Positions 5,365-63,019 of a DNA stretch of 64,000 bases are shown one piece after another (within the stretch, counting starts at the first letter, position 1; the number at the start of each line of letters is the position of its first letter). The position numbers and the translations under genes were made by a program. Below the pieces are notes generated by a model. It saw nothing but the letters and a program-made list of their open reading frames with translations. It searched no databases and was not told where the DNA came from. Source of the DNA: a virus (taxonomy: Duplodnaviria; Heunggongvirae; Uroviricota; Caudoviricetes); IMG/VR virus record IMGVR_UViG_3300020200_000004, one strand, 5' to 3'.

Positions 5365-6093
5365 GTGACAAACAATCTAATTAAATATCTGAATAAGCGT
5401 ATTATCCCTTGGCGAAACGATTTTGGGTTGCCAAGGGATATTGCCCATAAAACCCATAGCCCCGTTAATATTTTAATATTAAATGCGGCGACTGAGGTTA
5501 ATAGGTATAATTCACCTTTTTGGGCAACCAAGGAACAATGGAATTCAGTAGGTTGTAAAGTTAGATATTGGGAACAGCCAACTTTAAGTTATTACAACAA
5601 AGACCAAGTAGATGGAAGCTTTGCTTGTGCTGCTGACCCTGTTATGTCTTTTAATGAAGTTGATAAGTTAATTGTTGATACCAAGGTTAATATAAAGTTT
5701 TCGCATAAGCTTATTGCTGAATATCATTATCCACCCAATGATTACATTTTGTTTCCTTATAAAATTCATTTTGATATGGGAGAAGGTAAGGAAGCTGGGT
5801 ATTACAATGCAATTTTCCATGAATTAGCCCATTTTACAGAACCTAAATTGGGTTGGGAATCTGAAAAGTATGGTGTGCCGGTTACTGAGTTACGTGCTGA
5901 AATAGCTGCTGACTTCATCACTTCTTATCTGCGTCTCCCACGATTGGCTTTTAATTTAAGAAGTAACCATCACAAGTGGATGGCAGATTGGGTCATGGCT
6001 TTGTCCTATGCTCCAAATTTGCTTGTTGCGGCTGCTGCTTCGGCTTACAATGCATTTAGATTGATTGTGAAGAAATATGCTAACGTATATTGA
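5365..6093 (+). CDS. ArdC-like protein (N-terminal ssDNA-binding-like region plus HExxH metallopeptidase-like motif)
   Basis: 242 aa, GTG start; NRYNSPFWATKEQWNSVGCKVR resembles the ArdC-N (DUF1738) motif; HELAH motif downstream. Confidence 0.4.
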   Translation: MTNNLIKYLNKRIIPWRNDFGLPRDIAHKTHSPVNILILNAATEVNRYNSPFWATKEQWNSVGCKVRYWEQPTLSYYNKDQVDGSFACAADPVMSFNEVDKLIVDTKVNIKFSHKLIAEYHYPPNDYILFPYKIHFDMGEGKEAGYYNAIFHELAHFTEPKLGWESEKYGVPVTELRAEIAADFITSYLRLPRLAFNLRSNHHKWMADWVMALSYAPNLLVAAAASAYNAFRLIVKKYANVY

Positions 6094-6502
6094 AGGCGAT
6101 CTGTTTAATTCAAAATGCGAATATGTTATATGCACCGTGAACTGTATTGGTGTAATGGGAAAAGGAATTGCTTTAGAATTTAAGAAGCGATACCCAGAAA
6201 TGTACTTGGCTTATAGAGAGGCTTGTGATAAAGGGGAAGTTAAAATAGGAAAGATGTGGGTTTGGAATAATATTATAAATTTTCCCACTAAAGATGATTG
6301 GCGTAACCCTTCCAAGCTAGAGTATATTAAAGCTGGGTTGTTGGACTTGAAAGTGGTTGTAAGAGAAAGAGGAATAAAAAGTCTTGGGATGCCAAAATTA
6401 GGTTGCTCCAATGGAAAATTAACGTGGGAAGATGTTAAAAAGCTAATTGAGATATTTCATTCAGTGGTTCCAGAATTGGATTTGCAAGTTTATTTAAAAT
6501 GA
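6077..6502 (+). CDS. Macro-domain protein, OARD1/TARG1-like (terminal ADP-ribose glycohydrolase family)
   Basis: EGDLF...CTVNCIGVMGKGIALEFKKRYP and LGMPKLGCSNGKLTWEDV parallel human OARD1 EGDLF...[21 protein letters not shown] and LSMPRIGCGLDRLQWENV. Confidence 0.7.
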   Translation: MLTYIEGDLFNSKCEYVICTVNCIGVMGKGIALEFKKRYPEMYLAYREACDKGEVKIGKMWVWNNIINFPTKDDWRNPSKLEYIKAGLLDLKVVVRERGIKSLGMPKLGCSNGKLTWEDVKKLIEIFHSVVPELDLQVYLK

Positions 6503-17142: not shown

Positions 17143-17178
17143 GTGTCGTTTTATTCTTACGGGAATGGAAGGATGCAC
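17143..17178 (+). promoter_or_regulatory. Conserved 36-nt hairpin element, copy 2 (spans the start codon of the IDO-like gene)
   Basis: gtgtcgttttattcttacgggaatggaaggatgcac; 32 of 36 nt identical to 5327-5362. Confidence 0.5.
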
Positions 17179-18283
17179 AGCAACAGAGAGCAAACTAATG
17201 CGAAGTCACTTTTGGGATGTAGTGGTAAGGGGATTTTTACCCATTCGTGATCCTGTATTAAAGGGAGATTTATTTGAAAAAATACCCCTTACAGGATCAA
17301 GGAATGAAATATTTAATTATTTAAATCAAAATAAAGTTGATTTAACAGCATTTGTAAACAATGAAGAAGATTGTGAACGGCTCTTTAGAATGTATTCCTA
17401 TGCTGCTAGTGCCTTTATTCATTCCCAAAGTGAACCGCCTACAAACGTTCTACCAAAAGAAATAGCCGTACCTTTAGTTAAGTTCTCTCAGATACTAGAC
17501 AGAAAGCCAATTCTATCATATGGTAGCTATTGTTTAAATAATTGGCAAAGAATAGATGTTACCAAACCTGTAGAACTAGGTAATATTCGTTTATTGACGC
17601 ATTTTTGCCCTATTCCATATAATCGGGATGAAGCTTGGTTTATTCTGGTGCATGTGGATATAGAAAATTCAGCAGCTTTGGGTATTTTTGCTTGTCATTC
17701 GATGCTTTTGCAAGACCCCTTAACACCTGAATTTGCTTTCTTTGTGCTTAATCAGATAAAAACCAGTCTGATTAACATGAATAAAGCCTTGAATAGAATG
17801 CCAGAAGAATGTAGCCCAGAGCATTATTTTTTATTCGTTAGACCTTATATATTCAGCTTTGAAAATGTTGTTTATGAAGATTGTTTTCATGGTAAACCGC
17901 AAACTTTTAGGGGTGAAACAGGGGCACAAAGTTCTATAATACCTGCTTTTCTTGCAGCATTGGAGATAAAGCATAAAGATTCAATGTTGACTCATCATTT
18001 GCAGGAAATGCGGGATTATATGCCTAAAGACCATCGCATTTTCCTGAATAATTTAGAAAATAGTTCTGTGCATCTAAGGGAAGTGGCTAAGAAAGACAGC
18101 AAGTTAAAGCCTTTATATAATGAATGTTTAATGCAACTTATTGATTTTAGAGAAAAACATTTTGAATATGCTATTAACTATATTGCTAATAAAGTAGAGA
18201 ATCCTAAAGGTACAGGAGGAACACCTTATGTGCCTTGGCTTAAGCAGCTGAAAGAAGAGACTAAGCAGCAAATTTTGGAGTAA
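17165..18283 (+). CDS. Indoleamine 2,3-dioxygenase (IDO)-family heme dioxygenase-like protein
   Basis: GETGAQSS, LQEMRDYMPKDHRIFL and KGTGGTPYVPWLKQLK parallel human IDO1 GGSAGQSS, LQDMRRYMPPAHRNFL and KGTGGTDLMNFLKTVR; a His is present where IDO has its proximal His. Confidence 0.65.
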   Translation: MEGCTATESKLMRSHFWDVVVRGFLPIRDPVLKGDLFEKIPLTGSRNEIFNYLNQNKVDLTAFVNNEEDCERLFRMYSYAASAFIHSQSEPPTNVLPKEIAVPLVKFSQILDRKPILSYGSYCLNNWQRIDVTKPVELGNIRLLTHFCPIPYNRDEAWFILVHVDIENSAALGIFACHSMLLQDPLTPEFAFFVLNQIKTSLINMNKALNRMPEECSPEHYFLFVRPYIFSFENVVYEDCFHGKPQTFRGETGAQSSIIPAFLAALEIKHKDSMLTHHLQEMRDYMPKDHRIFLNNLENSSVHLREVAKKDSKLKPLYNECLMQLIDFREKHFEYAINYIANKVENPKGTGGTPYVPWLKQLKEETKQQILE

Positions 18284-18285
18284 AC

Positions 18286-18420
18286 ATGAAAGATTATTTA
18301 AGGACAATCAAGCTTGGCATCGGAGAAGGTGAACCCGGCAAGCAAGCATGTTGGATGAGTGCCCTTTCTGCGCATTTGGGCGGGGAATGGACAGATAGTT
18401 TGGAATGTGTTGATCCTTAA
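18286..18420 (+). pseudogene. Truncated member of a local paralog family (44 aa: MKDYLRTIKLGIGEGEPGKQACWMSALSAHLGGEWTDSLECVDP*)
   Basis: N-terminal homology to 47403.. and 48392..48943; stops where the paralogs continue. Confidence 0.45.
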
Positions 18421-19034
18421 ACTTTGAGGCAAATGGTCCTGGGTGGAGAGGAGACAATTATTATTTAACAGAAAAAGAAAATAATTGTTCGGTTTGTGGA
18501 GCTACAGAAGAATTAACTCGGCATCATGTTGTTCCATACAGTTATAGAAGATATTTCCCAGAAGAAGTAAAATCACATAATCATCATGATATTGTGCTTT
18601 TATGTGTTCCTTGCCATACCGAATATGAACGTGAGGCACGTAAATTTAAAAAGCAAATTATAATTAAGTATGGCATTTCGGTTAATGGTACTGGATATCA
18701 ATATGACCATGAAATAGCAATAGTTAAAAGGTTTTCTGGTACTTTATTGGAACATGCCGCTTTAATCCCACAAGCTAGAAAAGAGGAAATGTACCAAGTT
18801 ATAAAGGATTATTGCAAAAAAGATGTGACGACAGAAGATATGAAAAAGCTGGTTGAGACTTTAAACCCACATACATACTCAGAAGATCATTTAAAACATG
18901 CAGATGCAATTGCAAAACTGGTTGATATTCAGGAATTTGCTAGAGAATGGAGACAGCATTTTATTGATTCTATGCAGCCTAAATTCTTACCGCTTCATTG
19001 GGATGTGAATCGTTCTGTTTATAAGGAAAATTAG
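18414..19034 (+). CDS. HNH endonuclease domain ORF without a canonical start (frameshifted fusion to the upstream paralog fragment, or a remnant)
   Basis: Open frame reads ...DNYYLTEKENNCSVCGATEELTRHHVVPYSYRRYFPEEVKSHNHHDIVLLCVPCH (HNH motif). The N-terminal stretch DNYYLT resembles paralog NDLYYMDNK. No ATG, and no GTG/TTG before the internal GTG 18594 at which the ORF track opens this ORF. Confidence 0.45.
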   Translation, partial: SLNFEANGPGWRGDNYYLTEKENNCSVCGATEELTRHHVVPYSYRRYFPEEVKSHNHHDIVLLCVPCHTEYEREARKFKKQIIIKYGISVNGTGYQYDHEIAIVKRFSGTLLEHAALIPQARKEEMYQVIKDYCKKDVTTEDMKKLVETLNPHTYSEDHLKHADAIAKLVDIQEFAREWRQHFIDSMQPKFLPLHWDVNRSVYKEN

Positions 19035-24869: not shown

Positions 24870-26042
24870 ATGCTTGTAGCAGAACGACATTATATACAAG
24901 AAACACTTGAAATTGTCCGACTATGTACATTAAGCAAAGAACTTTACAATAAATGCAATTTCTTGATGAGGCAAGCATGGTTTATAAATGAAAAATTACC
25001 TAATATAAATTTGCTTGTTCGAGAGACAAAGCCATTAGACTGTTACAAAAACCTTCACAACACCAAAACAGCAGCACAAACAATACGTAAATGTCTTGTA
25101 GATTGGGCAAACTTCCTCAAAACCCTGAAAGCATACAAGAAAGACCCAACAAAATTCAAAACTAGACCTAAACCGCCTTATTATAAAAATAAACTCACAC
25201 AAATTATATTCTTTAATGAAACTATCAAGAAAAGACCATTGAAACAAGATGTAATTACCCCAACGAACAATCTATTTTCAATTAAAAGTGACATTAAAGA
25301 ATTTAAGCAAGTAATGATTACTCCTAAAACATTTGGTTTTATAGTAGACATTCAATATGAAAAAGAAGTCAAGAAAGTAAAAGTAAGCAAGAATAGGTTT
25401 GCCTGTATAGATGTTGGTGTAAATAATTTAGCTACGATAACTTCAAACCAACTGGAGCATCCCATATTGGTTAATGGTCGCATACTAAAAAGCATCAATA
25501 GATTCTATAATAAAAAACCTAATAAGAATAATAGTAGGAAACGTTATTTCCGTATTGAGAATTATTTCCATCATGCTTCTAAATTTATAATTGATTTATG
25601 TATTAAACATAAAATTGGCAAAATCATTATCGGTAAGAATGATGGTTGGAAGCAATTTTCTAAAATACGAAAAGTACAAAACCAAAATTTTCAATATATT
25701 CCTTTTTATAAATTTTTAGATAAGATTAAGTATAAAGCAACATTAGCGGGCATTGAAGTTATATTTACTGAAGAATCATATACAAGTAAAGCAAGTTTCC
25801 TTGACCATGATTCAATACCAACTTATAAAAAAGGCAATAAACCTCCTACTTTTTCTGGTAAAAGAGATAAAGGAATGTATAGAACATTTAGACCTATTCA
25901 TGCTGACGTGAATGGAAGTTTAAACATAGGATGTAAAGTATTCGGGGATAAAGTCTACAAGGCTTTCCCTGATAGGAGCATTGCCGCAATGCCAGTACGA
26001 ATTAATCCATTGAAGATTTTTGCATATAACAGCAAAAATTAG
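24870..26042 (+). CDS. tnpB: TnpB-like protein (OrfB_IS605 family), apparently nuclease-dead (TldR-like)
   Basis: 390 aa. RuvC-I FACIDVGVNNLA and RuvC-III HADVNGSLNIGCK are present. The RuvC-II position reads KIIIGKNDGW (Gly where the catalytic Glu is expected). The zinc-finger cysteines are absent (ESYTSKASFLDHDS...). Confidence 0.65.
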   Translation: MLVAERHYIQETLEIVRLCTLSKELYNKCNFLMRQAWFINEKLPNINLLVRETKPLDCYKNLHNTKTAAQTIRKCLVDWANFLKTLKAYKKDPTKFKTRPKPPYYKNKLTQIIFFNETIKKRPLKQDVITPTNNLFSIKSDIKEFKQVMITPKTFGFIVDIQYEKEVKKVKVSKNRFACIDVGVNNLATITSNQLEHPILVNGRILKSINRFYNKKPNKNNSRKRYFRIENYFHHASKFIIDLCIKHKIGKIIIGKNDGWKQFSKIRKVQNQNFQYIPFYKFLDKIKYKATLAGIEVIFTEESYTSKASFLDHDSIPTYKKGNKPPTFSGKRDKGMYRTFRPIHADVNGSLNIGCKVFGDKVYKAFPDRSIAAMPVRINPLKIFAYNSKN

Positions 26043-33617: not shown

Positions 33618-33631
33618 TTAATTGTACCAAG
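33618..33631 (+). promoter_or_regulatory. Conserved motif TTAATTGTACCAAG, copy 5
   Basis: Exact 14-mer about 41 nt upstream of ATG 33673 (AAGGAG RBS lies between). Confidence 0.5.
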
Positions 33632-39301: not shown

Positions 39302-42300
39302 ATGTCGCAATTTAAGACAGTTGAGAATTTTAAGGATATTTTAATGTTAAAAGAAAAAACTACTTTGCGATCCTATCAGCTGCTTCTATTAGATAATCAT
39401 GATTTAGTAGAAAAGACGATAGATGTTTATACAAAAGGAGCTTCTGCTTGGTTGGACTTTTGGCTTACTGTTTTGGGCGGTATAGAATTTGAGATGATTC
39501 CATTATCTCCTCTTAGCAGTTATTGTATTACTAAAAAATTAAAGAGGAAATCCCAAGAAGATAAAGAAATATTTATTCCTATTAGCGAAGAAGCTTTATT
39601 GTTTGGCTGTTGGTTTTCTTTAGAAACGAATAGCAATTCGCCATTCATTATTTCTGTTCAAGATGTTTGGAACAAGTTCAAATCTTATCTGCCGAATAAT
39701 GTGAAAATAAGCTACAATTGGGAAAGAACTATCAAAGCACAAATTAATTCCTTTGTGTCTGAGAATACTTGTTGGGTAGATAGAAGAAAAGCATTTCAAG
39801 ACCTATCATTTAAAATTAATGTTGCTGATCTTGTTTGTAAAAAAGATTTTTGGCTTAATAAAGATGTGGATAGCAAATTGTATATGAGAAGTGCCTTGGG
39901 GCAATGGTGGAATGATGGAACAAAATCAGATTGGGTTAATCTTAAAATTAAATGTGAACAGTCTATAAAATTTATCGAACAAGAATCAGATATCAGAAAT
40001 GCAAAAACAAAAATTCTACAATCTCTTGGATTGCCAGATATAGCAGAAGCTAAAGAAATTGGCAAAGCTTATGGCAAAAAAGGAAAGCCTTCCAGAGTGT
40101 TTATTAAATTGGAAAAATTAACAGAAGATACTACCAAAGACCAATTGGTTAAGGAATTTCAAGAAGAAATTGTAAACGCAGAAGAACATGTTGCTTTTAA
40201 GCGTTGTCCCTGGCATGCGAAAATTAGAGAAAACATTGAAAAAGCAATAGGTGTAAGTTATTTTAATGAAAAAGGTAATAGTAGTCAAAATAATTTTGGA
40301 GAAATGGGCAATCTTGCTCTTGAAAAAATTAAAAGTTGGAAATCTAATTTTTTTAATGTCTTAGGAGAAAGATATCATAACTGTAAATCTGATTTCCATG
40401 ATTCAGAGGTAAAAGAATGGTTTGAAGAATACAAAAAAACAAACAAACAACTTAGAAATAGCAGCCTTTCAGGACTTGAAAAAGTATTTGATTTACTAGA
40501 TAACAAGTCTTTTGAAGATGCTATTAAAGAAGCCCAAAAATCCTACAACATTCTTGGAAGAAGATTTGGAGACGCTAACTTTTTCAACTTTTTAGGCAAT
40601 AAAATTCAGTCCAGAAAGGACAAAGATTGGTTGAAATTAATACGAGAATATGATAATTGGGATAATGTAAATTACAAATTTATAAATCATAAAAGTCCAA
40701 GACTTAAGCATTTTGGGGATGATCACTTAGCCACTCCTAGATTTGGGGAGTCAAGACCAACAGGCAATATCAAAAGCACAACTGGAAATAGTCACTCAAT
40801 TACATTGAATGTTTTCGATGGCAAATCATTCAAACTGACTAAAATTAATTCTGCTTGCAAAAGATTGTCTAATGAAATTAAAGATAATCAATCAATTAGA
40901 CAGACTAAGTTATCTGGAAAAATCTTTGAAAACTATCGAATTCTTCCTAAGAGTTTAGTTAAAAAGGGTGGACTTAAACTTTGTAAACAAAATGATAAAT
41001 GGTATGCCCATCTAACAGTCAATTTGCCAGTATTTGAAAAAGCTTCATGGCAAAAATTGATGAAAACCGGCACCATAATAATGAGTATAGACCCTGGTAT
41101 TAGAAGTTCTATATCATATACTATATTTGAAATATTTGAATGTGATCGAGATACAGATTATTTTATTGAAAATGGCATTACTCATGTGAAAATACATTCA
41201 TGGGAAGATCATAGTGGTACTAAGTTTAAAGTGCCTCATAATAATTTGTGGGTTAAATTGTTGGAATGGGGACATATTCGTGATCTACAACCTATTGGCG
41301 AAAATGGTTATCGTCAGTGCAGATTAGATGGTGGAACAAACACCAATTTAGACTCAGAAGAAATAGAATTTTGGAAATATCTTTTAATAACTGGTGTTGA
41401 GCAAAAAGACATGCCTGATCCTTTGCCAAAAAGGTCTGAATATTCTAGAATTATTGCAAATTTAATTAACAAGTGGTATACAAACAAATCAAAAGAAATT
41501 ACAGATAAGGTTAAACAACTAAATATTAATGATCCTGTAGAGTTTTCAAAAACTTTACAACATGTAAGAAAAGAAAGCGATTTATCATCAGAATTATTGA
41601 TAAAGGCGTCCCAAATATTATTTGTAAATAATTCAGATAAAATTGGGAGAGGCGGGTTATCCTATGCTAGAATTAAGATGCTCCAAACACTTTCTTCTGC
41701 TTGTAATAAATTCTTAAAAGTTAAAGAAAATAATGCAGAAATTATTGAATTTCAGAATTTTCTTAGAAAGAAAATTAATGCCATAAGAACGGAACGAGTA
41801 AGAATTACTGTAAACAAAGTTTTGCATGAAGCTGTCAATAACAAAGTAAATCTAATTCTATATGAAAATACCCAACTAAAATCTTCTTCCAGTTCCCCCA
41901 GAGGTCTTAATAGAAGTATAACATCCTGGTGCCCGTCAAAAGTAATCGAAGAATTGAAAAAACAAATAGATTTGTTGCCAATTTCTATAATGGGAGTAAA
42001 CTCTGCTTATACGTCTCATAACTGTTTTGTAACTTGCAAGAAAAAATGTCGTTATGATAAAGTTCATTTAGATGATCTTAATATTGAGCCTTGGAAAGAA
42101 AGAATAACCGATATTTTTACAAAAAAACAATTAAGCTTAACTGATTGTTTGTTGAAAAAAGGTTGGGAAAATTTCCTGAAAGAAAATGACTTGATGAGCT
42201 ACAAACAAATACCTGAATTTGTTAAAAACAAAAAAGCTTTTTGTTTAGTTCCCTCCAGGACAGGAAAATTGTTTGTTACAGAAATTGGAGAATTGAATGC

Positions 42301-42364
42301 TGATATCGCCGCTGCTGCTACAATAGGAATGAAAGGTCTTGCAATAATCCTATCCAAAGCTTAA
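39302..42364 (+). CDS. cas12: Cas12-family (type V) CRISPR effector-like protein, RuvC-only single effector; subtype not assignable by eye
   Basis: 1020 aa. C-terminal RuvC split in TnpB/Cas12 order: RuvC-I IIMSIDPGIRSS (D597), RuvC-II NLILYENTQLKS (E855), Cys/His cluster HNCFVTCKKKC (906-916), RuvC-III GELNADIAAAATIGMKGL (D1001). About 590-aa N-terminal helical region. The gene lies immediately upstream of a co-oriented CRISPR array. Confidence 0.75.
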   Translation: MSQFKTVENFKDILMLKEKTTLRSYQLLLLDNHDLVEKTIDVYTKGASAWLDFWLTVLGGIEFEMIPLSPLSSYCITKKLKRKSQEDKEIFIPISEEALLFGCWFSLETNSNSPFIISVQDVWNKFKSYLPNNVKISYNWERTIKAQINSFVSENTCWVDRRKAFQDLSFKINVADLVCKKDFWLNKDVDSKLYMRSALGQWWNDGTKSDWVNLKIKCEQSIKFIEQESDIRNAKTKILQSLGLPDIAEAKEIGKAYGKKGKPSRVFIKLEKLTEDTTKDQLVKEFQEEIVNAEEHVAFKRCPWHAKIRENIEKAIGVSYFNEKGNSSQNNFGEMGNLALEKIKSWKSNFFNVLGERYHNCKSDFHDSEVKEWFEEYKKTNKQLRNSSLSGLEKVFDLLDNKSFEDAIKEAQKSYNILGRRFGDANFFNFLGNKIQSRKDKDWLKLIREYDNWDNVNYKFINHKSPRLKHFGDDHLATPRFGESRPTGNIKSTTGNSHSITLNVFDGKSFKLTKINSACKRLSNEIKDNQSIRQTKLSGKIFENYRILPKSLVKKGGLKLCKQNDKWYAHLTVNLPVFEKASWQKLMKTGTIIMSIDPGIRSSISYTIFEIFECDRDTDYFIENGITHVKIHSWEDHSGTKFKVPHNNLWVKLLEWGHIRDLQPIGENGYRQCRLDGGTNTNLDSEEIEFWKYLLITGVEQKDMPDPLPKRSEYSRIIANLINKWYTNKSKEITDKVKQLNINDPVEFSKTLQHVRKESDLSSELLIKASQILFVNNSDKIGRGGLSYARIKMLQTLSSACNKFLKVKENNAEIIEFQNFLRKKINAIRTERVRITVNKVLHEAVNNKVNLILYENTQLKSSSSSPRGLNRSITSWCPSKVIEELKKQIDLLPISIMGVNSAYTSHNCFVTCKKKCRYDKVHLDDLNIEPWKERITDIFTKKQLSLTDCLLKKGWENFLKENDLMSYKQIPEFVKNKKAFCLVPSRTGKLFVTEIGELNADIAAAATIGMKGLAIILSKA

Positions 42365-42451
42365 AATGGCTCTGTTCGTTGATCTTTGACATCTTATTTT
42401 TAAGTTTATTTTAAACAGAAAGCAAACTGTTATCAGTTTTTCTTTCTGTTC

Positions 42452-42489
42452 AGTCTCTCGCCCTTATTTAAAAATAAGGGCGAGAGACT
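42452..42489 (+). other. Perfect 15-bp-stem hairpin between the cas12-like gene and the CRISPR array (terminator-like but without a U tract)
   Basis: agtctctcgccctta-tttaaaaa-taagggcgagagact. Confidence 0.45.
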
Positions 42490-42713
42490 ATGTGGTGAAA
42501 AACGTTGGAAAAGAAAATTTTTCTTAAGTCCTGATGAATTAAGCTTTTGCGATAAAGTTATCCTGTGCTGCCTATCGCTCGTTTTAAGTCTTTATTTGAA
42601 AAAGGTTTATGGCATCAAACCAATAAAATTCGGATATGCAGTTGTTCTAAAGTAATTGCCTCTCGCATACTTGTTTGTAAGTTGTTTTATTAAAAGGCTT
42701 TATGCAAATGAGC
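42490..42713 (+). promoter_or_regulatory. AT-rich CRISPR leader (putative)
   Basis: About 220 nt AT-rich sequence directly upstream of the first, non-degenerate repeat; the degenerate repeat is at the far end of the array. Confidence 0.4.
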
Positions 42714-44534
42714 GTTGCAATAGATTAAAACAATGTGCTGTTATTGGCACTTCGGCGTCATCGTCGGCATGGCCGCCCTGGTCCTGGTTGCAATAGATTA
42801 AAACAATGTGCTGTTATTGGCACACCAATGGCCAGTTTCAGAAAAGCACTTTTTCAATGTTGCAATAGATTAAAACAATGTGCTGTTATTGGCACAAATA
42901 AAACCAGCCAGTAACCGCTATATCCGCAAAAGTTGCAATAGATTAAAACAATGTGCTGTTATTGGCACTATTTGATTGTACATTGCATTACAATCGCCGT
43001 TTTTGTTGCAATAGATTAAAACAATGTGCTGTTATTGGCACCCAAAGGCCAGTCTCCGCCTTTGGCGCTCAAGAGCGTTGCAATAGATTAAAACAATGTG
43101 CTGTTATTGGCACCGATACAATGAAAGTAATCACGTGCACGATGGCAAGGTTGCAATAGATTAAAACAATGTGCTGTTATTGGCACGTCAAATATGGAGT
43201 AGGATGAAGGGCGAATTTTGGAGTTGCAATAGATTAAAACAATGTGCTGTTATTGGCACTGGAGGCTAAGGACTAACAAGAAGAAACTAGGAATGGTTGC
43301 AATAGATTAAAACAATGTGCTGTTATTGGCACGGAGTCCAGATACCATAGTTAATTCGTTGCAATAGATTAAAACAATGTGCTGTTATTGGCACACTAAT
43401 CAGCCAATCTTCTTAGGTGTTGATCTTTCGTTGCAATAGATTAAAACAATGTGCTGTTATTGGCACCGAACCGCCCTTGCCGCCGCCGTACACCTTAATG
43501 GTGTTGCAATAGATTAAAACAATGTGCTGTTATTGGCACTATCCGCAAAAAAAGAATGTGTCAATGCAAGGGTATTGTTGCAATAGATTAAAACAATGTG
43601 CTGTTATTGGCACCCAGCTTGGCAATCTGTCCTTCAATGTGCGTTCTTTGTTGCAATAGATTAAAACAATGTGCTGTTATTGGCACTATAGTGTATGCAC
43701 CGACTAATATATAATAGTAGCGTTGCAATAGATTAAAACAATGTGCTGTTATTGGCACTTTTTGGTCCTCGTCGTGGCCGTACACGTGATCGAGGTTGCA
43801 ATAGATTAAAACAATGTGCTGTTATTGGCACTCCAGTTATTGCTTGTTACTGAGAGAAGGGCTGGGCAGCGTTGCAATAGATTAAAACAATGTGCTGTTA
43901 TTGGCACTATAGCAATCGATTATCTCCGCATCGTCCAGTAGATGTTGCAATAGATTAAAACAATGTGCTGTTATTGGCACCTGCGCAGCGTAGAAGGTTG
44001 TTTCGTCGATGACCTGGTTGCAATAGATTAAAACAATGTGCTGTTATTGGCACAAACGTGACAAAGAGGTTGCAATAGATTAAAACAATGTGCTGTTATT
44101 GGCACATGAATTCGCCAGTGGCGACATGTCGGTCCGTGTCTGGTTGCAATAGATTAAAACAATGTGCTGTTATTGGCACTTGATGCTCTGCCCCAGACTT
44201 TCGTGGAAATCCGTGTTGCAATAGATTAAAACAATGTGCTGTTATTGGCACGGCATTTGCTTAGCCACCTCCGCACTCTTACACTTCTGTTGCAATAGAT
44301 TAAAACAATGTGCTGTTATTGGCACAATGTTCCAGACTTGCTACTACCTAATATGTTTCCGTTGCAATAGATTAAAACAATGTGCTGTTATTGGCACGTG
44401 CGAAGGTTGCCGGACTGCTTATGTTGCAATAGATTAAAACAATGTGCTGTTATTGGCACTGGAACGCACTTTTTCTTTTTTGCGATGCAGCAAGGAAGTT
44501 GCAATAGATTAAAACAATGTGCTGTTATTAGCAC
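42714..44534 (+). CRISPR. CRISPR array: 26 direct repeats of 37 bp (GTTGCAATAGATTAAAACAATGTGCTGTTATTGGCAC), 25 spacers
   Basis: Most spacers 35-37 nt; outliers 39, 38, 25, 25 and 15 nt. Repeat 4 carries a 1-nt deletion. The last repeat (44498-44534) is degenerate (..TTAGCAC). A 3' stem GTGC-N8-GCAC sits in each repeat next to the spacer. Same orientation as the cas12-like gene. Confidence 0.95.
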
Positions 44535-44670
44535 TCCAAGCAGCAACATTCCTGATCGTTTAGCTGAAATTTATAGTAAAGATGATCCTGTGCCGCCTCA
44601 AGTATGGGAAGCAGTTAAAGAAGTCCGAAAAGGAATGGGCATGATGTGGCATTACGCAGGAGATTAATTT

Positions 44671-45186
44671 ATGTCATTGATTTTAGCTAAGTCTGCTCCT
44701 AAACTGGAGGTTAAAACTTTTGGTATTGTGCCAATTCCTTCATTAGAAGATGAATTGAAGCACCCCAACATATGGATTCGTACCAGAGATTCTAAAGAAG
44801 TAGATTTTGAAATAGATTTTATTGATTTTAATCAAATATTGGATTGTTATTTTGGATTTAAACCATCGGCAGACATATTTTCCATTGACGAAGAGGAGAT
44901 GGAATTTTGGTTCGGTAGTAATAATTGGGCAGAAAATTGCATTCTATTCAAATTCAAAACCAATGACGCTAATGTATTTGCCATTGATGAAACAGATTTC
45001 AAAGTAATGGCACAATATGTTTATACCAATACAGATTTAATAGCAAATGACGTAAGATTAAATTATTTGGGAAGGCATAAAAAGAAGTCAGAAAAACTAA
45101 AAAGAGGGCAAGATTTATTTGATTGGTTGCTTTCTTTGAAATTGGTCGATGGTTTTAATACAAAAAACAAAAGGCTTGCAAAATAA
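44671..45186 (+). CDS. Hypothetical protein (171 aa)
   Basis: First ORF after the array. Confidence 0.4.
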   Translation: MSLILAKSAPKLEVKTFGIVPIPSLEDELKHPNIWIRTRDSKEVDFEIDFIDFNQILDCYFGFKPSADIFSIDEEEMEFWFGSNNWAENCILFKFKTNDANVFAIDETDFKVMAQYVYTNTDLIANDVRLNYLGRHKKKSEKLKRGQDLFDWLLSLKLVDGFNTKNKRLAK

Positions 45187-45187
45187 C

Positions 45188-45904
45188 ATGACATTTTGGC
45201 AAGAAGCAAAGGGGTTGGCCAAGTCTTTATGGTTCGACCCTTTTTGGTATTTGATGTTATTTTTGATAACATTTGGGCCGGTTCTTAGTCATGGAGAATT
45301 TCCTTGGTGGACTTGGCTATGGATTCCAGGGTCTATTCTGGTTATGTTCTTTATTATATTGTGCAAGCAAAGATATGGCTACCGTTGGAATAAGGAAGAG
45401 GAAGATGCCAAAGACCCTATGCGGTATAGCGTGAAAAAAGTAAAGTTTAGCATGGAAAAAGGTGGAAATTCTGTGAATACTGAAATTATTGTTAGATATG
45501 CCAGAAAAGAAGACGCACATACTTTATATCAACTTTATAATGGCGATTGGTCTAACTTTATAATGTTGGGGCATAGTTTTTATGAATATGAAGAAATGAT
45601 ATTGGCTTCTCATGTTAAAGTAATTGGGGCTTTTAGAGAAGATGCGTTTCTTGAAATTAAAACTTCGACAGCAGTTGGAATTTTAATTGCAGTTGATGTA
45701 GTTTGCTGGGGGTATTTGGATATAATTTATGTTGATGAAGAATATAGAAAATTAGGTGTTGGCAAGAGAATGATAGATTTACTTATAGCATCTAATCCCA
45801 AATGGAAAAAACTGGAAGCTGGGGATATAAATGAGAATGAGAAGATAAAAGAAATGGGTTTTCAGTACGTTGAACCTTTAAATTGGTGCGTGAAAAGCTT
45901 ATGA
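45188..45904 (+). CDS. Membrane-anchored GNAT-family N-acetyltransferase
   Basis: Two N-terminal TM helices (LWFDPFWYLMLFLITFGPVL / LWIPGSILVMFFIILC) then GNAT motif A IIYVDEEYRKLGVGKRMIDLL. Confidence 0.55.
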   Translation: MTFWQEAKGLAKSLWFDPFWYLMLFLITFGPVLSHGEFPWWTWLWIPGSILVMFFIILCKQRYGYRWNKEEEDAKDPMRYSVKKVKFSMEKGGNSVNTEIIVRYARKEDAHTLYQLYNGDWSNFIMLGHSFYEYEEMILASHVKVIGAFREDAFLEIKTSTAVGILIAVDVVCWGYLDIIYVDEEYRKLGVGKRMIDLLIASNPKWKKLEAGDINENEKIKEMGFQYVEPLNWCVKSL

Positions 45905-46077
45905 TAACAAGTGATGATCCTCTTACTGCAAAATTGATAAAGCTTTTGAACCGGGCACATGATATAATATGGCTCAATGCTTTAGAACCTATTTATAAAG
46001 AAGAGGTTTTGTCACAAGCAGAAATTGAAGCTTTTCTGATGGAAGTTGAGGAAGTAATATATAAGCCAAACCCAAAA

Positions 46078-46151
46078 GCCCCTGTAGTTTAATTGTGCAA
46101 AACGTGCTACTTTAGATAGCTAAGATGTGGGTTCGAATCCTGCCAGGGGCG
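46078..46151 (+). tRNA. tRNA with predicted anticodon UUA (ochre/UAA-suppressor-type)
   Basis: Cloverleaf by hand: acceptor gcccctg/caggggc, D-stem gttt/aaac, anticodon stem gcta/tagc with loop cTTTAga (U33, anticodon TTA, R37), variable loop aagat, T-arm gtggg-ttcgaat-cctgc. One t-t mismatch at the top of the anticodon stem. Confidence 0.5.
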
Positions 46152-46180
46152 TTAGTTTCATTGCATATTTACTATGATAT

Positions 46181-46651
46181 GTGATGAAGAAAACAAAACC
46201 AACACAACTTAATGAACAAATATTACAAAAAATAATTCCAAATTGTATTTCTTACAGCGAAGTGTTTAGGCAATTAGGTATGGTTCCTGCTGGTGCCAAT
46301 TATAGAACCTTGCATAAGTATGTTAAATTATGGAATATTGATGTATCTCACATTGAGGCACGTACTTGGCATAAACATATAAGTAATGGGAGGGGCAGAC
46401 CTTTAGAAGAAATTTTGGTTAAAGGCAGATTCGAGACGGGACACATTCTAAAAAAAAGACTTATAGCAGCAGGAATCAAAAAACATGCTTGCGAAGGATG
46501 TGGTTTAACTGAATGGCGTGGCAAGTCAATTCCTTTAGAAGTTCACCATAAAGACGGGGATAGGAATAACAACTTGCTTGTAAGTCTTGTGATGAAAAAA
46601 ACCGAAAAACAAAAATTTCTTGGCCATCCTGTGAAGAACTTCAATCAATGA
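46181..46651 (+). CDS. HNH homing endonuclease; the reading frame appears broken near 46578, and the C-terminal part continues in another frame to about 46750
   Basis: CEGCG...LEVHHKDGDRNNNL (HNH core). After NNLL the +1 frame reads CKSCDEKNRKT...AVGRQLGVSDRAVHKRLKNH, the usual ..NLQLLCKSC.. plus HTH tail of these enzymes. Confidence 0.6.
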   Translation: MMKKTKPTQLNEQILQKIIPNCISYSEVFRQLGMVPAGANYRTLHKYVKLWNIDVSHIEARTWHKHISNGRGRPLEEILVKGRFETGHILKKRLIAAGIKKHACEGCGLTEWRGKSIPLEVHHKDGDRNNNLLVSLVMKKTEKQKFLGHPVKNFNQ

Positions 46652-46732
46652 TAAAATCTTCTTCATTTTTAGCTGTTGGAAGGCAATTAGGAGTTTCAGA
46701 TAGGGCAGTTCATAAGCGGTTAAAGAATCATT

Positions 46733-47401
46733 GTGGAATCAAAAATGAGTAAAATTAAAGTTTTAACTATAGAAGAAGCTATGTGGAATATAGGCCAATA
46801 TAAACCTAGCAAAGTCAGACTTCCAAAGAAACTAGTTGAAATTGGAAAACTGAAAATCCATGCAGACACACAATATTACGATGCCTTTGCTAATTATTAT
46901 AGCAGGCTAAAAACTCAATTGCCACATGATAAGTTCTGGCAAATAATTGAATTTCTAAGAAAGCTAATCGCAAATCGTGGTTTCACCTATGACAAATTAA
47001 AAACTTCCATAGATGAATTGTTCCGGCTAACTGCAACTGGAGAAAGCGAACACCCTGAAGGTGGTTTTGATGGTCCACATGTTGCATATAATTTCAAGGA
47101 CTTATTGCAGTTCTGCTTTACATATGAAGGAATTTCCGATAAAATAGACCAGAAGCTTGATGACTTTTCTCTTGGCAGTGATGATTCTAGAGGCGATTTG
47201 ATGGATTCACTGCCCTTGGCTGGTGTAAAAGTGTACGAAAATATACTAAATGGCACAGTCAAGAATGAGCAAGATTTAGAAAAAGAATTGAAGTCATTGG
47301 CTAAAAAATGGTATGAGTTTATCCGAAATGGCGAAAACTATGTGTGGATGACATTAAAGGAAGAAGCGGCAAGTAGAGCCTTAAATCTAATGATGGAGTA
47401 A
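46733..47401 (+). CDS. Hypothetical protein (222 aa)
   Basis: ORF. Confidence 0.4.
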   Translation: MESKMSKIKVLTIEEAMWNIGQYKPSKVRLPKKLVEIGKLKIHADTQYYDAFANYYSRLKTQLPHDKFWQIIEFLRKLIANRGFTYDKLKTSIDELFRLTATGESEHPEGGFDGPHVAYNFKDLLQFCFTYEGISDKIDQKLDDFSLGSDDSRGDLMDSLPLAGVKVYENILNGTVKNEQDLEKELKSLAKKWYEFIRNGENYVWMTLKEEAASRALNLMME

Positions 47402-47402
47402 C

Positions 47403-48095
47403 ATGAAAGATTATCTAAGAACAATTAACTTGGGGTAGGGAGTCGGTGAATCTGGCAAGCAAGCATGTTGGATGAGCGCTCTTTCTGCTCATTTGGGTGG
47501 GGAATGGACCGATACATTAGATTGCGTTGATCCTATCATTAATAGCCTTTGCATAATTATTAATGATCTTTATTATATGGACAATAAGGGCAGAACCAAT
47601 GACATTATGAAATTTGGTTTGTTTGCTCCATTGGGAACTAAAGGCACTTGGAAAGATACTGAGAAAAGACTATTTAAACTTGCGGATATTGCTATAAGAA
47701 AATGGGCAGCAACCGTGAGTTTTCATACAGGATTTATACAAGATGAAAAATTCCTAAGAAATTTGGATGAAATTGTAGATTTGCCTAGTCTTCGTAAAGC
47801 TAGAAATGATATTGAAATTGCAGCTTGTTATTTAATGAGTGAATTGGACATAATAATTTATCATATAAAAGGCATTTTGATAATCCACGAAACTTGCAAG
47901 AGAGAAATGATAGCTAATTTATATAAGTTTACTGGAATTTTGATAGATCATATGGGTAGAAACGTTCTCGTAAAAGATCATTTATATTCTGCACTAAGAG
48001 AACTAATTGAAATGGGTCCACATGCACCAGAAGAACCTGAATATCCTGCTTGTGGTATTCCAAAGTTTCAAGAACTAGTAGGTATTAAAACATAA
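47403..48095 (+). CDS. Paralog family A member with an in-frame TAG at codon 12 (pseudogene, internal restart at 47472, or stop-codon readthrough)
   Basis: MKDYLRTINLG-TAG-GVGESGKQACWMSALSAHLGGEWTDTLDCVDPIINS... The paralogs have Ile/Phe at the TAG position. C-terminus LIEMGPHAPEEPEYPACGIPKFQELVGI is shared with 48392..48943. Confidence 0.45.
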
Positions 48096-48110
48096 ACTAA
48101 AAGAATTAGT

Positions 48111-48391: not shown

Positions 48392-48943
48392 ATGAATGAT
48401 TATCTTAAAACAATCAAGCTAGGATTTGGCAAAGGCAAAAGGGGAGAACAAGGATGTTGGATGAGGGTGTTCCACATTGCAGATACTGTTATTAGAGAGT
48501 GGACGCCAACTGTGTTAAGAAATTATTGGCACGGTTTACGGATCGGTTGTCCAATGCACCTTTTATATCAAAAAATTGCTGATAAATTAGAAGAAATGCC
48601 TAAAATTTCAAAAGAAACATCTAAACTTTATCGTGTTTTAGATACTTTAAATGAAATGGAAATTAAAGAATTAAAATCTGCAAAAACTATTATTATGGCT
48701 GCATGTTTTCTTTCCATTAAACATAGTCGTATAATGTGTGATGGCATTGCCGATTCCGTTGTTGGCACATTTCCTTGGCCTTGGTTAGAATTGAATGCCG
48801 ACCGTGATCATAGAAAATACCTAAAGACCAAAGTTTACCCATTGTTAAGAGAACTAATCGAAATGGGACCACATGCACCAAAAGAATCAGAATATCCTGC
48901 TTGTGGTGTACAAAAGTTCAAGGAAGCGGTGGGAATAGTTTAA
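48392..48943 (+). CDS. Paralog family A member, intact (183 aa)
   Basis: MNDYLKTIKLGFGKGKRGEQGCWM... ...LIEMGPHAPKESEYPACGVQKFKEAVGIV; GGAGG RBS. Confidence 0.5.
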   Translation: MNDYLKTIKLGFGKGKRGEQGCWMRVFHIADTVIREWTPTVLRNYWHGLRIGCPMHLLYQKIADKLEEMPKISKETSKLYRVLDTLNEMEIKELKSAKTIIMAACFLSIKHSRIMCDGIADSVVGTFPWPWLELNADRDHRKYLKTKVYPLLRELIEMGPHAPKESEYPACGVQKFKEAVGIV

Positions 48944-53934: not shown

Positions 53935-54624
53935 ATGATTAATGAACTAGGTCCGACTGGAGATTTTCGCTGTCCAAAATGCAAAAACAGCCTCCAAAAT
54001 AGCGTTGTTGGGGACAAATATCGTTGCGCAAATTGTAAGCACGATTGGAAACCTACCATTGTCGATTGGGCATTAAAGATTGCAACCGAAGCGCATATTT
54101 ATCAAAAGAGGAAATGGGCTACTGGAACGGCAGAAGTTCCTTATATTGTCCATCCAATCCGTGTTGCTAAAAAGATTGCTACGTTAAAAGGCACTACTGA
54201 AGTTGACGTTGCAGCAGCTTTAGTCCATGATTTAGCGGAAGATGTTGCTATTCCCCAAAAGAAAGTTGCAGAATATAATCAGCTTGTTGAAGAAAAGTGT
54301 GGTAAGTTAGTTCTTGAATTGATGTGGGAACTTACTAATCCAACGGAAGGACCGGAATGGGCAGATGTTCCAAGGACTGAGAAGAGAAAGCATGATTGGC
54401 AGCATTTAGCTCAAGTTTCTGATCGTGCCAAACGTATTAAAATGGTTGATCGCTGGGATAATGTCAGTGACTTTGGCAATGCTCCGTCCAGGCTTGTTTT
54501 CAAATACATCCCAGAAAGTTATCATCTTTTAAGTATGACTCGTTATGTTGATGAAGAAATGGGTCAAGAATTAGAAGATGCAATTAAGGCATTAGAAAAA
54601 CGTTATAAACACAAAAATGGCTAA
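53935..54624 (+). CDS. HD-domain (p)ppGpp hydrolase (small alarmone hydrolase, RelA/SpoT-HD-like) with N-terminal zinc ribbon
   Basis: EAHIYQKRKWATGTAEVPYIVHPIRVA...AAALVHDLAEDV...IKMVDRWDNV parallels the SpoT HD GEPYI.HPL.VA..AALLHDVVEDT...IKLADRLHNM; CPKC/CANC pairs at the N-terminus. Confidence 0.7.
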   Translation: MINELGPTGDFRCPKCKNSLQNSVVGDKYRCANCKHDWKPTIVDWALKIATEAHIYQKRKWATGTAEVPYIVHPIRVAKKIATLKGTTEVDVAAALVHDLAEDVAIPQKKVAEYNQLVEEKCGKLVLELMWELTNPTEGPEWADVPRTEKRKHDWQHLAQVSDRAKRIKMVDRWDNVSDFGNAPSRLVFKYIPESYHLLSMTRYVDEEMGQELEDAIKALEKRYKHKNG

Positions 54625-58023: not shown

Positions 58024-58094
58024 GGCCCCATAGCTTAAGAGGAAAGCAGGGTGCTTATAACGCCAAGACGGTAGTGCGACTCTACCTGGGGCTA
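58024..58094 (+). tRNA. tRNA, predicted anticodon UAU (Ile, AUA-reading); short
   Basis: Acceptor ggcccca/tggggct, D-arm gctt-aagagga-aagc (GG in loop), anticodon loop cTTATAa, T-arm ggtag-tgcgact-ctacc; the anticodon stem has one mismatch and one G-U pair. Confidence 0.45.
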
Positions 58095-58686: not shown

Positions 58687-59397
58687 TTAGGCAACAATTG
58701 AAATTAAAGCAGTGGAATTTATTTCCCATAAGTTGTGGTCTAACTCCCAATGACAATTTCTACATAAAGATATAAGATTGCTGAGTTGATTTATGTCATT
58801 AACAATTGTTTCCTTGGGAAAACTCCGTATTGGCTTAATGTGGCAGACTTCGTAGTGTTTATCATAACCACATTTGACGCAATATTTTGGTAGACTTGAT
58901 TCTCTGTATTTTGTCCTAGCGTGTTCTCTTATTCTCGCATAGATTTGGTATTTGTATTTATAATGAAATTCTTTTATAGCTATTTTACCAAGACTCTCTA
59001 ATGAAATTTTATTTGTTTCTGGTTTATTCGTTATGCATTTTTCGCAATATTTTTTCCTCGAAGCAATAGGGTCATTACAGACACGGCAATAACCTTTAGG
59101 CTTTCGTTTTGGGCAATGAACATTAGTATGTATTGCGCAGCATCTAGAGGAACAGAATTTGGGGTTTAAAGTTGGTTTTTCACAAAGATGGCATGGATGA
59201 AGTTTTCTATAATGTCTTGAAACATCAGTATTGAATATTTCTTTTATTGCATTAGCCCATGAACCGAATCTATTTTTAATTGTTGTTCTGGCATATTGGC
59301 CTAATTTGTCATAATGTTTTGAAGTAGGTATTTTATTTATTTGTTCAAAAACTAATTTTATATCTTCGGCTATTTGTTCTTTGGTTAATCTATACAT
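58687..59397 (-). CDS. HNH homing endonuclease with multiple zinc-finger Cys clusters
   Basis: 236 aa on the minus strand; C-terminal EVCHIKPI...NLISLCRNCHWELDHN (HNH); CHLC..., CRVC..., CEKC..., CVKC pairs. Confidence 0.6.
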   Translation of the reverse strand: MYRLTKEQIAEDIKLVFEQINKIPTSKHYDKLGQYARTTIKNRFGSWANAIKEIFNTDVSRHYRKLHPCHLCEKPTLNPKFCSSRCCAIHTNVHCPKRKPKGYCRVCNDPIASRKKYCEKCITNKPETNKISLESLGKIAIKEFHYKYKYQIYARIREHARTKYRESSLPKYCVKCGYDKHYEVCHIKPIRSFPKETIVNDINQLSNLISLCRNCHWELDHNLWEINSTALISIVA

Positions 59398-62530: not shown

Positions 62531-62833
62531 ATGAAAGTGAAATTAGAATTATACAAGTATGGTGGAATTAGTTGTTTGGATGAAGGTTGCATATTTAAGC
62601 GTGAATGTGCAAATCATATGACTGCTGGAGACTTTAGATCAGAAGATGGATTTACTCCTCAGTTGGAAGAAAAAAATGGCGAATATTTCTGTGCTACTAA
62701 AGATGCAGAAATTGATGAGTGGTATAGCTGTGAATATGGCACAACTTATCCCGAAGGAAGGGAAAAATTGGGCGATGGAGCTATGACACAGAAGGATTTA
62801 AAGTTGGTATCCGTTATCAACTATGTAATCTAG
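62531..62833 (+). CDS. Hypothetical protein (100 aa)
   Basis: ORF. Confidence 0.4.
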   Translation: MKVKLELYKYGGISCLDEGCIFKRECANHMTAGDFRSEDGFTPQLEEKNGEYFCATKDAEIDEWYSCEYGTTYPEGREKLGDGAMTQKDLKLVSVINYVI

Positions 62834-63019
62834 GTTTGGCGTCCATCTGAATCTAGCACAAGTGCAGTTTTTTTTGCAGCAGCTTCCGGCACAATTGATT
62901 CTGTAAATTTTTCCATCCCTTCTAAGCACCAGACTTCCATGATCTTTTTTGCTGCACCCGCATTTGCAAATTTCTACTTTTTTTGCTTTTTTTGTTGCCA
63001 GCATGACTTCTTCCCCCAA
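62798..63019 (-). CDS. Hypothetical Cys-rich small protein on the minus strand (73 aa)
   Basis: ORF with 11 Cys (CKCGC, CAGSCC, CTC); uncertain. Confidence 0.25.
   Translation of the reverse strand: MGEEVMLATKKAKKVEICKCGCSKKDHGSLVLRRDGKIYRINCAGSCCKKNCTCARFRWTPNLDYIVDNGYQL

Follow-up and report, generated by a model that had tools for sequence, protein, structure and literature searches.

The tRNA-UUA gene and the interrupted paralog

Within a 64,000-nucleotide stretch of viral DNA (IMG/VR record IMGVR_UViG_3300020200_000004, Caudoviricetes; hereafter the window), a tRNA gene whose anticodon, UUA, matches the stop codon UAA lies at 46078-46151 on the + strand (anticodon at 46112-46114). It stands 30 nucleotides (nt) upstream of the remnant of an HNH homing-endonuclease gene (46181-46752, +), beyond which lies a gene with an in-frame TAG at codon 12 (47403-48095, +; TAG at 47436-47438). 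Our observations establish this gene, tRNA-UUA, as a genuine and structurally typical tRNA gene in a window that uses the standard genetic code and, taken together with variants found in other contigs of the same phage, lead us to favour, with some reserve, a dispensable tRNA derived from an arginine tRNA and an independent nonsense mutation in a redundant paralog.

ARAGORN reports a single gene, a tRNA-Stop with anticodon tta (46078-46151, + strand) and thus not a sense tRNA, and Rfam model RF00005 matches it in the same register at 57.4 bits (E = 9e-10, against a gathering score of 29). Together with an alignment to phage arginine tRNAs, these results bear out the standard cloverleaf with a UUA anticodon that had been proposed in a reading of the letters alone (the sequence-only reading). 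The score lies at about the median of 53 tRNAs of LR756511.1, a 595-kb uncultured phage related to this one, whose Rfam scores lie between 29.6 and 73.4 bits. The anticodon loop, C-U-(U-U-A)-G-A, is closed by a stem UGCUA/UAGCU whose first pair is a U-U mismatch (27-43); the tRNA carries G37 and the discriminator G73, and CCA is not encoded. Its D-loop reads AAUUGUGCA and lacks G19, which is the sole exception among the tertiary nucleotides, with U8, A14, G18, U33, G53-U54-U55-C56 and A58 all kept. The minimum-free-energy fold differs from the cloverleaf (z = -1.6), a result that is uninformative for an AU-rich tRNA and that we did not hold against the gene. Promoter-like matches around tRNA-UUA are no commoner than in shuffled sequence, and no theta-like, hepatitis delta virus (HDV)-like or other ribozyme was found beside it, even at E <= 10. 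In E. coli ochre suppressors, a UUA anticodon also reads UAG through U-G wobble, and we accept on the same footing the earlier suggestion that this tRNA would decode UAA and, with an unmodified U34, UAG as well.

The body of tRNA-UUA resembles that of an arginine tRNA. Its acceptor stem (GCCCCUG/CAGGGGC), G73 and T arm are identical to those of IMG/VR tRNA-Arg(UCU/UCG), with one Arg(UCU) gene (locus L037) sharing the same acceptor stem and G73, and its best full-length matches in IMG/VR are all Arg(UCU), at 55-57 of 74 identical positions. Arg(UCU) is also the best match among the approximately 64 tRNAs of LR756511.1 (52/74 identical). When the two halves were searched separately in IMG/VR, the last 20 nt were found in five loci. 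Three of these were called as tRNA-Arg, UCU in two cases and UCG in one, and a fourth as an unusual tRNA whose anticodon has four bases. The first 16 nt proved common to many tRNAs called Arg(ACG/UCU). In the alignment, most of the departures of tRNA-UUA from the Arg(UCU) pattern lie in two loops. Its D-loop reads ...UUG-UGC-A... (G-U-G-C) in place of the ...U(U)G-GAU-A... (G-G-A-U) of the arginine tRNAs, with the loss of G19 and A20, and the anticodon loop has CUU-UAG-A in place of CUU-CUA-A, with the loss of C35, U36 and A37. A separate observation concerns 44 IMG/VR viral contigs (within loci L041-L105, for example L056, L062 and L071), which carry a tRNA of about 92 nt called Ile(tat) that has the same first 16 nt as tRNA-UUA, a similar T arm, an encoded CCA and an insert of about 20 nt after the anticodon arm, either an intron or a long extra arm.

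The main identity elements for arginyl-tRNA synthetase (ArgRS) in E. coli are A20 and C35. Neither is present in tRNA-UUA, where position 35 is U, and, if the E. coli rules apply, arginine charging is unlikely because both elements have been replaced. By analogy with E. coli suppressors that carry U35, charging with lysine or glutamine by the corresponding synthetases (LysRS or GlnRS) is likelier than charging by ArgRS.

No tRNA with the same anticodon arm was found in IMG/VR, in contigs of JGI metagenomes or in 50,697 phage genomes. Exact-pattern scans of IMG/VR and the JGI metagenomes, run with the anticodon arm and with a generic CUUUAGA plus T arm, returned non-tRNA chance matches only, and blastn against the 50,697 phage genomes matched the 3' half at most. 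Nor was a close relative of the phage or of tRNA-UUA found in the collections searched, the nearest Arg(UCU) loops differing at three positions. Matches to 'tRNA-OTHER' genes of Gordonia phages, which are undetermined tRNAs, were rejected as suppressors. Orthology was likewise rejected for a CUA tRNA of LR756511.1 (45/74 identical) and for the tRNA-Glu and tRNA-Gln that flank an HNH homologue in that genome (46/74 and 42/74 identical, respectively).

The gene at 47403-48095 belongs to a family with three copies in the window, and its translation (47403-48098) reads MKDYLRTINLG*GVGESGKQACWM.... The second copy (48392-48943, +; 183 aa) is intact and has Phe at the position of the TAG; the third (18286-18420, +), found by tblastn at 86% amino-acid identity over 44 residues, is an N-terminal fragment of 44 codons and has Ile. 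The TAG at codon 12, its coordinates and the Ile or Phe opposite it, all of which had been read from the letters alone, proved correct on translation and alignment. The same holds for the claim that the rest of the frame is conserved, since 207 codons after the TAG are intact and invariant residues of the family stand on both sides of it (Y4, L5, T7, I8, L10 and G11 before; G13, G15, Q20, C22, W23 and M24 after). The TAG column is variable, with F/L/L/Y/L/H/F/Y in eight database homologues and Y in a ninth, and because of this the inserted amino acid is not deducible from the single TAG. The TAG differs at all three bases from the ATC of one paralog and at two from the TTC of the other; it is one step from TAC/TAT (Tyr) or TTG (Leu), residues that are present in homologues.

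The start of the interrupted gene is intact, with a GGAG Shine-Dalgarno sequence and an ATG in the same arrangement, GGAG-TAA-(A)C-ATG, as in the 18286 copy; in the 48392 paralog, GGAGG lies about 15 nt upstream of the ATG. Compared with the 18286 fragment (82% nucleotide identity over 47403-47534), the interrupted gene has 12 synonymous and 6 non-synonymous differences over the 44 codons, and a ratio of 5:1 in the codons before the TAG. This intact start and synonymous excess argue that the N-terminal segment has been translated for most of its history, and that the nonsense codon would be either recent or tolerated. The next in-frame ATG encodes the family-invariant Met24 (47472), 33 nt downstream of the TAG and with no obvious Shine-Dalgarno sequence, where re-initiation after termination at codon 12 is plausible. 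As for the 18286 fragment, it runs into a stop, beyond which lies an HNH endonuclease open reading frame (ORF) at 18441-19034 (+; assigned from PHROG HNH families), and it looks like a paralog copy truncated through homing-endonuclease insertion or gene conversion. No further family members with in-frame stops were found in IMG/VR. The only family member (DYLRTIKLGxGxGxPGKQACWM) in the genome collection is intact and lies at 6001-6456 of locus L111 (CAVYBP010000003.1), on an 875-kb contig with 53% G+C from a metagenome-assembled genome (MAG) of Phycisphaerales (Planctomycetota); it may be a clue to the host or may reflect a mis-binned or integrated phage.

Genetic code and population variation

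Among 75 coding-strand genes of the window picked by codon-usage score, 44 end in TAA, 21 in TGA and 10 in TAG, which agrees with the earlier statement that most genes end in TAA; this codon accounts for 59% of the phage's own terminators in the window. When TAG or TAA was treated as sense, ORFs on the coding strand gained 13% and 35%, respectively, in both cases less than on the non-coding strand, and there was no gain specific to the coding strand with TAG, TGA or TAA as sense, the non-coding strand gaining at least as much each time. We also tested every same-frame pair of open segments split by a single stop for continuing coding potential, and found no further readthrough candidates in the window, nearly all junctions being adjacent genes with an ATG 1-2 codons past the stop. 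Two candidates were examined and rejected: a TAA at 33619, where alignment with the LR756511.1 homologue begins at residue 11 of the downstream ORF and the 58-aa piece before the stop is unmatched, and the open frame after a TAG at 62831, which is the antisense of a Cys-rich ORF (62798-63019, -). A tblastn comparison of LR756511.1 ORFs with the window gave 49 matches; the 12 of them that contain stops are antisense shadows or extend upstream of starts, and no stop interrupts a window gene. Close backup stops are not enriched after TAA, the median distance to the next in-frame stop being 8 codons, against 10 for genes ending in TGA.

The window thus uses the standard code, and tRNA-UUA is probably not part of a genetic-code change. 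UUA is the cognate of TAA, which stays unrecoded, and the in-frame TAG is reached by wobble only. The search for conserved in-frame TAA or TAG codons that had been suggested in the sequence-only reading, when run on the window, yielded nothing beyond the TAG at codon 12. Its interpretation is borne out in part. The anticodon assignment, the wobble reading of UAG and the prevalence of TAA hold, whereas for local or regulated recoding the single TAG is the only support, and the lack of any other conserved in-frame stop, the polymorphic tRNA with its structure-breaking variants, the fixed TAG and the HNH pseudogene speak against it. One ambiguity of gene calling was noted in passing. A short gene at 2665-2841, between genes at 1744-2664 and 2842-3669, differs in called length between assemblies (50 aa in some, 55 aa in another; L021 and L023 were compared), although its nucleotides are identical to those of the window; in the frame shared by the two flanking genes, TAA and TGA delimit an open stretch of 57 codons.

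The relative LR756511.1 provides a case of an isolated nonsense codon. In its gene at 104099-103584 (-), the HD_4-domain orthologue of window gene 53935-54624, an in-frame TAA at 103829 replaces a codon that is GAA (Glu) in the window, with strong conservation on both sides. No UUA tRNA was found in LR756511.1, and isolated nonsense codons therefore occur in this phage group without a matching suppressor. LR756511.1 does have an amber-type tRNA at 179588-179661 (-) (L012 8189-8262), with anticodon CUA, loop CUCUAAA and G73. Simple ORF statistics show no code-specific ORF gain in this genome, TAG included, and the CUA tRNA is apparently another orphan suppressor in the group. Elsewhere in LR756511.1, at 290614-290689 (-) (L014 19415-19490), lies a sequence scored at 47.7 bits by Rfam to which ARAGORN assigns a four-base anticodon (gaaa); it is either a miscall or possibly a tRNA resembling frameshift suppressors in having eight nucleotides in its anticodon loop.

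How the locus varies is seen in short contigs of this phage that exact-protein look-ups recovered from other samples. About 68.6 kb aligned to such contigs contain five differences, four of which fall within 46095-46325. At the left end of the window, an alignment of about 30 kb to six contigs holds no differences, and at the right end 1.15 kb hold one; seven contigs over 43855-47837 show four distinct differences, all in the tRNA-HNH segment. Two of these lie in tRNA-UUA. G46127T turns the first T-stem pair, G49-C65, into U-C, with an Rfam score of 51.6 bits instead of 57.4. A 9-bp deletion (GTGCAAAAC, 46095-46103) flanked by direct repeats of GTGC takes away the 3' half of the D-arm and leaves a score of 37 bits. 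The other two are single-nucleotide polymorphisms in the HNH ORF, both non-synonymous (C46290A, Ala to Asp; A46325C, Lys to Gln). The concentration of four of the five differences in the 663-bp tRNA and HNH segment, about 7% of the aligned bases, gives a Fisher p of 1e-4 (4e-4 for the tRNA alone), and if only the short contigs are counted, all four would land in this segment with a probability of about 0.004; these figures are to be read with the caveat that short contigs tend to arise at strain differences and that the variant alleles may be rare. Every copy across the contigs has the anticodon UUA. Eight contigs, from at least six samples, span the TAG at 47436-47438, and all keep it, among them the contig with the D-arm deletion, which is otherwise identical. 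Such a distribution would be expected of a tRNA and an HNH remnant on which purifying selection is weak or absent, and of a TAG that is independent of the tRNA.

Mobile neighbours, phage context and competing explanations

The HNH gene downstream of tRNA-UUA matches the HNH endonuclease family PHROG 10822 (7e-25) over profile positions 6-134 of 245 only. Its intact homologue in LR756511.1 reads ...HHIDGDRKNNELDNLKLLCPNCH, and over a longer stretch ...LELHHIDGDRKNNELDNLKLLCPNCHAKT..., where the window copy has ...LEVHHKDGDRNNN and then, in a different frame, LACKSCDEKNRKTKISWPSCEEL...GIKNE*. The shift falls inside the HNH motif (HHKDGDRNNN, then LACKSCD... in the new frame), and the gene is dead because a frameshift and a small deletion sit in its catalytic motif. 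In LR756511.1, the main tRNA array contains a second homologue of this gene, flanked by tRNA-Glu(UUC) and tRNA-Gln(UUG). The sole other tRNA of the window (58024-58094, +; Rfam 53.6 bits) has the anticodon UAU (Ile, reading AUA) and a non-canonical T-loop, UGCGACU, and is missed by ARAGORN at its default setting and found only at a relaxed threshold; about 600 nt from it lies another HNH homing-endonuclease ORF (58687-59397, -; Pfam HNH_repeat and HNH_2). HNH genes thus stand beside both tRNAs and beside the truncated paralog, and tRNAs, HNH genes and the paralog family therefore share mobile, decaying neighbourhoods.

Two further ORFs complete the locus. A small one of 63 aa (45901-46092, +), whose last 15 nt overlap the 5' end of tRNA-UUA, is called in some assemblies only, has no family match and is a doubtful gene. 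A 218-aa gene of unknown function (46745-47401, +), with only distant homologues at no more than 34% identity, separates the HNH pseudogene from the interrupted paralog. A synteny test for insertion of a tRNA-HNH cassette was set aside, the flanking genes having no orthologues above 34% identity and the distant ones lying in unrelated contexts.

The window, with 35.5% G+C and nearly all its genes on the + strand, has about 30 genes that match LR756511.1 at 26-62% amino-acid identity and in partly shared order, and a 68-kb contig of JGI metagenome 3300020193 matches its positions 37472-58095 with 100% identity; it is therefore part of a huge freshwater phage. This phage is found in Lake Tanganyika-type metagenomes; its source metagenomes are JGI 3300020193, 3300020214, 3300020198, 3300020084 and 3300020197, SRR7990526, SRR7985589 and ERZ27247963, and a contig of 111,954 bp exists. 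The genes of the window include a sigma factor, Macro, an M50 peptidase, IDO, sugar-modifying enzymes and several HNH endonucleases, and no virion or lysis genes were recognised within it. The IDO gene, indoleamine 2,3-dioxygenase-like (17165-18283; Pfam IDO, 5e-58), is an unusual auxiliary gene for a phage. A locus of clustered regularly interspaced short palindromic repeats (CRISPR) at 39302-44546 has 26 copies of the 37-nt repeat GTTGCAATAGATTAAAACAATGTGCTGTTATTGGCAC (42713-44529) and a 1020-aa ORF (39302-42364), which PADLOC models for Cas12i (4e-24) and Cas12b match over the C-terminal ~400 residues only; this ORF has no Pfam match and no significant sequence match in PDB, its N-terminal ~600 aa are without assignment, and it may be a divergent type V effector. 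Two TnpB/Cas12f-like ORFs lie at 480-1706 (-) and 24870-26042 (+) (Pfam Cas12f1-like_TNB and OrfB_IS605).

We think it probable, though far from assured, that tRNA-UUA is a dispensable, Arg-derived tRNA travelling with a dead HNH gene, and that the TAG is an independent nonsense mutation in a redundant paralog. An Arg(UCU)-descended tRNA would have undergone changes in both loops that contact ArgRS and acquired the ochre anticodon UUA, next to an HNH gene that would be of the kind of mobile gene accompanying tRNA genes in this phage group. If transcribed and charged, it would allow low-level readthrough of UAA and, via wobble, of UAG, and any such readthrough would be weak and incidental. No gene of the window appears to need readthrough, and alleles with a broken structure are already in the population, which would make the tRNA dispensable, and neutral or mildly harmful. 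The TAG at codon 12 would have become fixed independently in a three-copy family that HNH insertion also seems to have eroded, and the product of the interrupted gene, if any, would come from termination and re-initiation at Met24 or from occasional suppression.

Several findings weigh against this account. The reference allele of tRNA-UUA is unlike an old pseudogene, all its stems being paired and its covariance score lying at the median of the relative. The changes that separate it from the arginine tRNAs are confined to the identity and decoding loops, as a selected identity switch would show, and the variant alleles come from short contigs and may be rare deleterious variants. On the side of the paralog, the Shine-Dalgarno sequence and ATG are intact and codons 1-11 before the TAG have 5 synonymous to 1 non-synonymous changes; moreover, the sole conserved in-frame stop in 64 kb adjoins tRNA-UUA, 1.3 kb away on the same strand, for which the chance under random placement, calculated post hoc, is about 4%. 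Finally, the code was examined over some 64 kb of non-structural genes only.

Much of this would suit a tRNA-UUA that works as a gene-specific suppressor, in which the U34-G wobble restores the full-length, 230-aa product of the TAG paralog at a level set by tRNA abundance. The tRNA is structurally typical and near the TAG on the same strand; the TAG is fixed in 8/8 contigs and is not a one-step change from the ATC or TTC of the paralogs; family-invariant residues flank it, the 207 codons beyond it are intact, and before it stand an intact start and a 5:1 synonymous excess. We nevertheless regard such a suppressor as doubtful. The contig with the D-arm-deleted tRNA retains the TAG and is otherwise identical, and tRNA-UUA is the most polymorphic 74 nt in the sampled population. 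With Tyr or Leu in homologues, a single change of TAC/TAT or TTG would give the TAG; the family is redundant, with visible decay elsewhere (the 18286 fragment and the HNH gene after it); and Met24, being family-invariant, could be used for re-initiation. A UAA-cognate tRNA would, in addition, read through 59% of the phage's terminators, which have no compensating backup stops.

A more ambitious proposal, which we consider unlikely, is that a standard-code, CRISPR-bearing huge phage has deliberately re-tooled an Arg-type tRNA into an ochre/amber suppressor, altering both ArgRS identity loops but keeping all stems paired, and uses it for gene-specific readthrough, with the TAG paralog as its first client, at the earliest stage of a code change and while still polymorphic. 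If true, the locus would offer a rare natural snapshot of the first step of such a change, with the suppressor and its single client codon both segregating.

It is quite improbable that tRNA-UUA targets the host, whether by readthrough of host UAA and UAG terminators that harms host or defence proteins, or by serving as a decoy for defence nucleases that attack tRNAs or replacing the tRNAs that these destroy. Phage suppressors have been proposed to sabotage the host through readthrough (PMC7886860, PMC8386662), and the idea would sit well with a phage as heavily armed for conflict as this one, with its CRISPR array and Cas12i-like effector, and with identity loops unlike those of ordinary arginine tRNAs. 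The phage's own genes, which mostly end in TAA, would however be hit equally, the population shows no sign of purifying selection on tRNA-UUA, and the failure to find a homologous UUA tRNA in IMG/VR, JGI metagenomes or 50,697 phage genomes argues against a conserved weapon. Very little speaks for the remaining possibility, that tRNA-UUA serves TAA or TAG reassignment in late structural or lysis genes outside the window, as in Lak and crAss-like phages: recoding is concentrated in late genes in known phages (PMC7886860), the window has no recognisable virion or lysis genes, so that the relevant genes would lie outside the examined stretch, and LR756511.1 also has a suppressor-type tRNA (CUA), but TAA is the commonest terminator of the window and TAG is used too, TAA reassignment is absent from the phage surveys consulted (PMC13037316, PMC11210395), phages that recode TAG carry CUA and not UUA tRNAs, the polymorphism of tRNA-UUA is disruptive, and LR756511.1 has no code-specific ORF gain.

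Comparison with known suppressor tRNAs and recoding phages

In the ochre suppressors supB, supG and supC of E. coli and in the psu mutants of phage T4, a UUA anticodon reads UAA and, more weakly, UAG, and is tolerated because it is inefficient. Laboratory ochre suppressors arose from Gln, Lys, Tyr or Ser tRNAs by a single anticodon mutation, under selection for nonsense rescue. Unlike these, tRNA-UUA is an allele found in nature; it carries G37 rather than A37, and its Arg-like body lacks A20 and C35. Homing-endonuclease genes embedded in phage tRNA clusters are familiar too, as with SegB of T4, which drives inheritance of the tRNA region; here an endonuclease gene likewise adjoins a tRNA, although, in contrast to SegB, the window HNH gene is frameshifted, and homing is at most suggested by the proximity of the two genes.

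Phages with an established alternative code use a different set of tools. In Lak, crAss-like and other gut phages, recoding (TAG to Gln in code 15, or recoding of TGA) goes with CUA or UCA tRNAs (PMC11210395, PMC13037316), and no TAA recoding was found among 10,754 jumbo-phage genomes (PMC13037316). In-frame stops number from tens to hundreds in recoding phages, which avoid ending genes with the recoded codon and whose coding density rises by about 20 points when the alternative code is applied (PMC11210395, PMC13037316). The window shares with them a stop-matching tRNA and an in-frame stop in a gene, but it has one TAG in about 75 genes, does not avoid TAA, shows no strand-specific gain and has no CUA or UCA tRNA.

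Two solitary or orphan UUA tRNAs in phages come closer. In the crAss-like alpha-group phage OKSC01000115, a tRNA-Gln changed from UUG to UUA without reassignment of TAA or another stop in the genome or its clade, described as 'suppressor pre-emergence' (Yutin et al. 2021, PMC7886860), and the window likewise has a UUA tRNA without stop reassignment, that is, a stop anticodon in a standard-code genome. The OKSC01000115 case involves one point mutation, near-identical sister genomes and a tRNA block, whereas for the window no sister genome was found and at least three loop changes separate the tRNA from its nearest relatives; unlike its counterpart, tRNA-UUA is solitary, stands beside a dead HNH gene and is damaged by population variants. 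The Klebsiella jumbo phage vB_KpM_FBKp24 (phiKp24, MW394391) has a solitary tRNA-Sup-TTA, for which its authors report Arg identity and unknown function (PMC8386662). Both are solitary UUA tRNAs in standard-code phages, that of phiKp24 lying a few kb from the main tRNA cluster. Homology between the two was rejected, with 46 identical positions in a gapped alignment, and the phiKp24 tRNA, with its mismatched acceptor stem and odd arms in the ARAGORN drawing, makes a much poorer cloverleaf than tRNA-UUA.

Suppressor tRNAs of phages are usually read as evidence of an alternative code, and here a well-formed one would sit as dispensable cargo in a standard-code phage; for this reason a tRNA alone should not lead gene callers or code predictors to change the code. 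The locus fits a class that has already been described, the orphan suppressor tRNA in a standard-code phage, and the most useful new point that it adds to the known members of this class is population evidence for the erosion of a suppressor tRNA.

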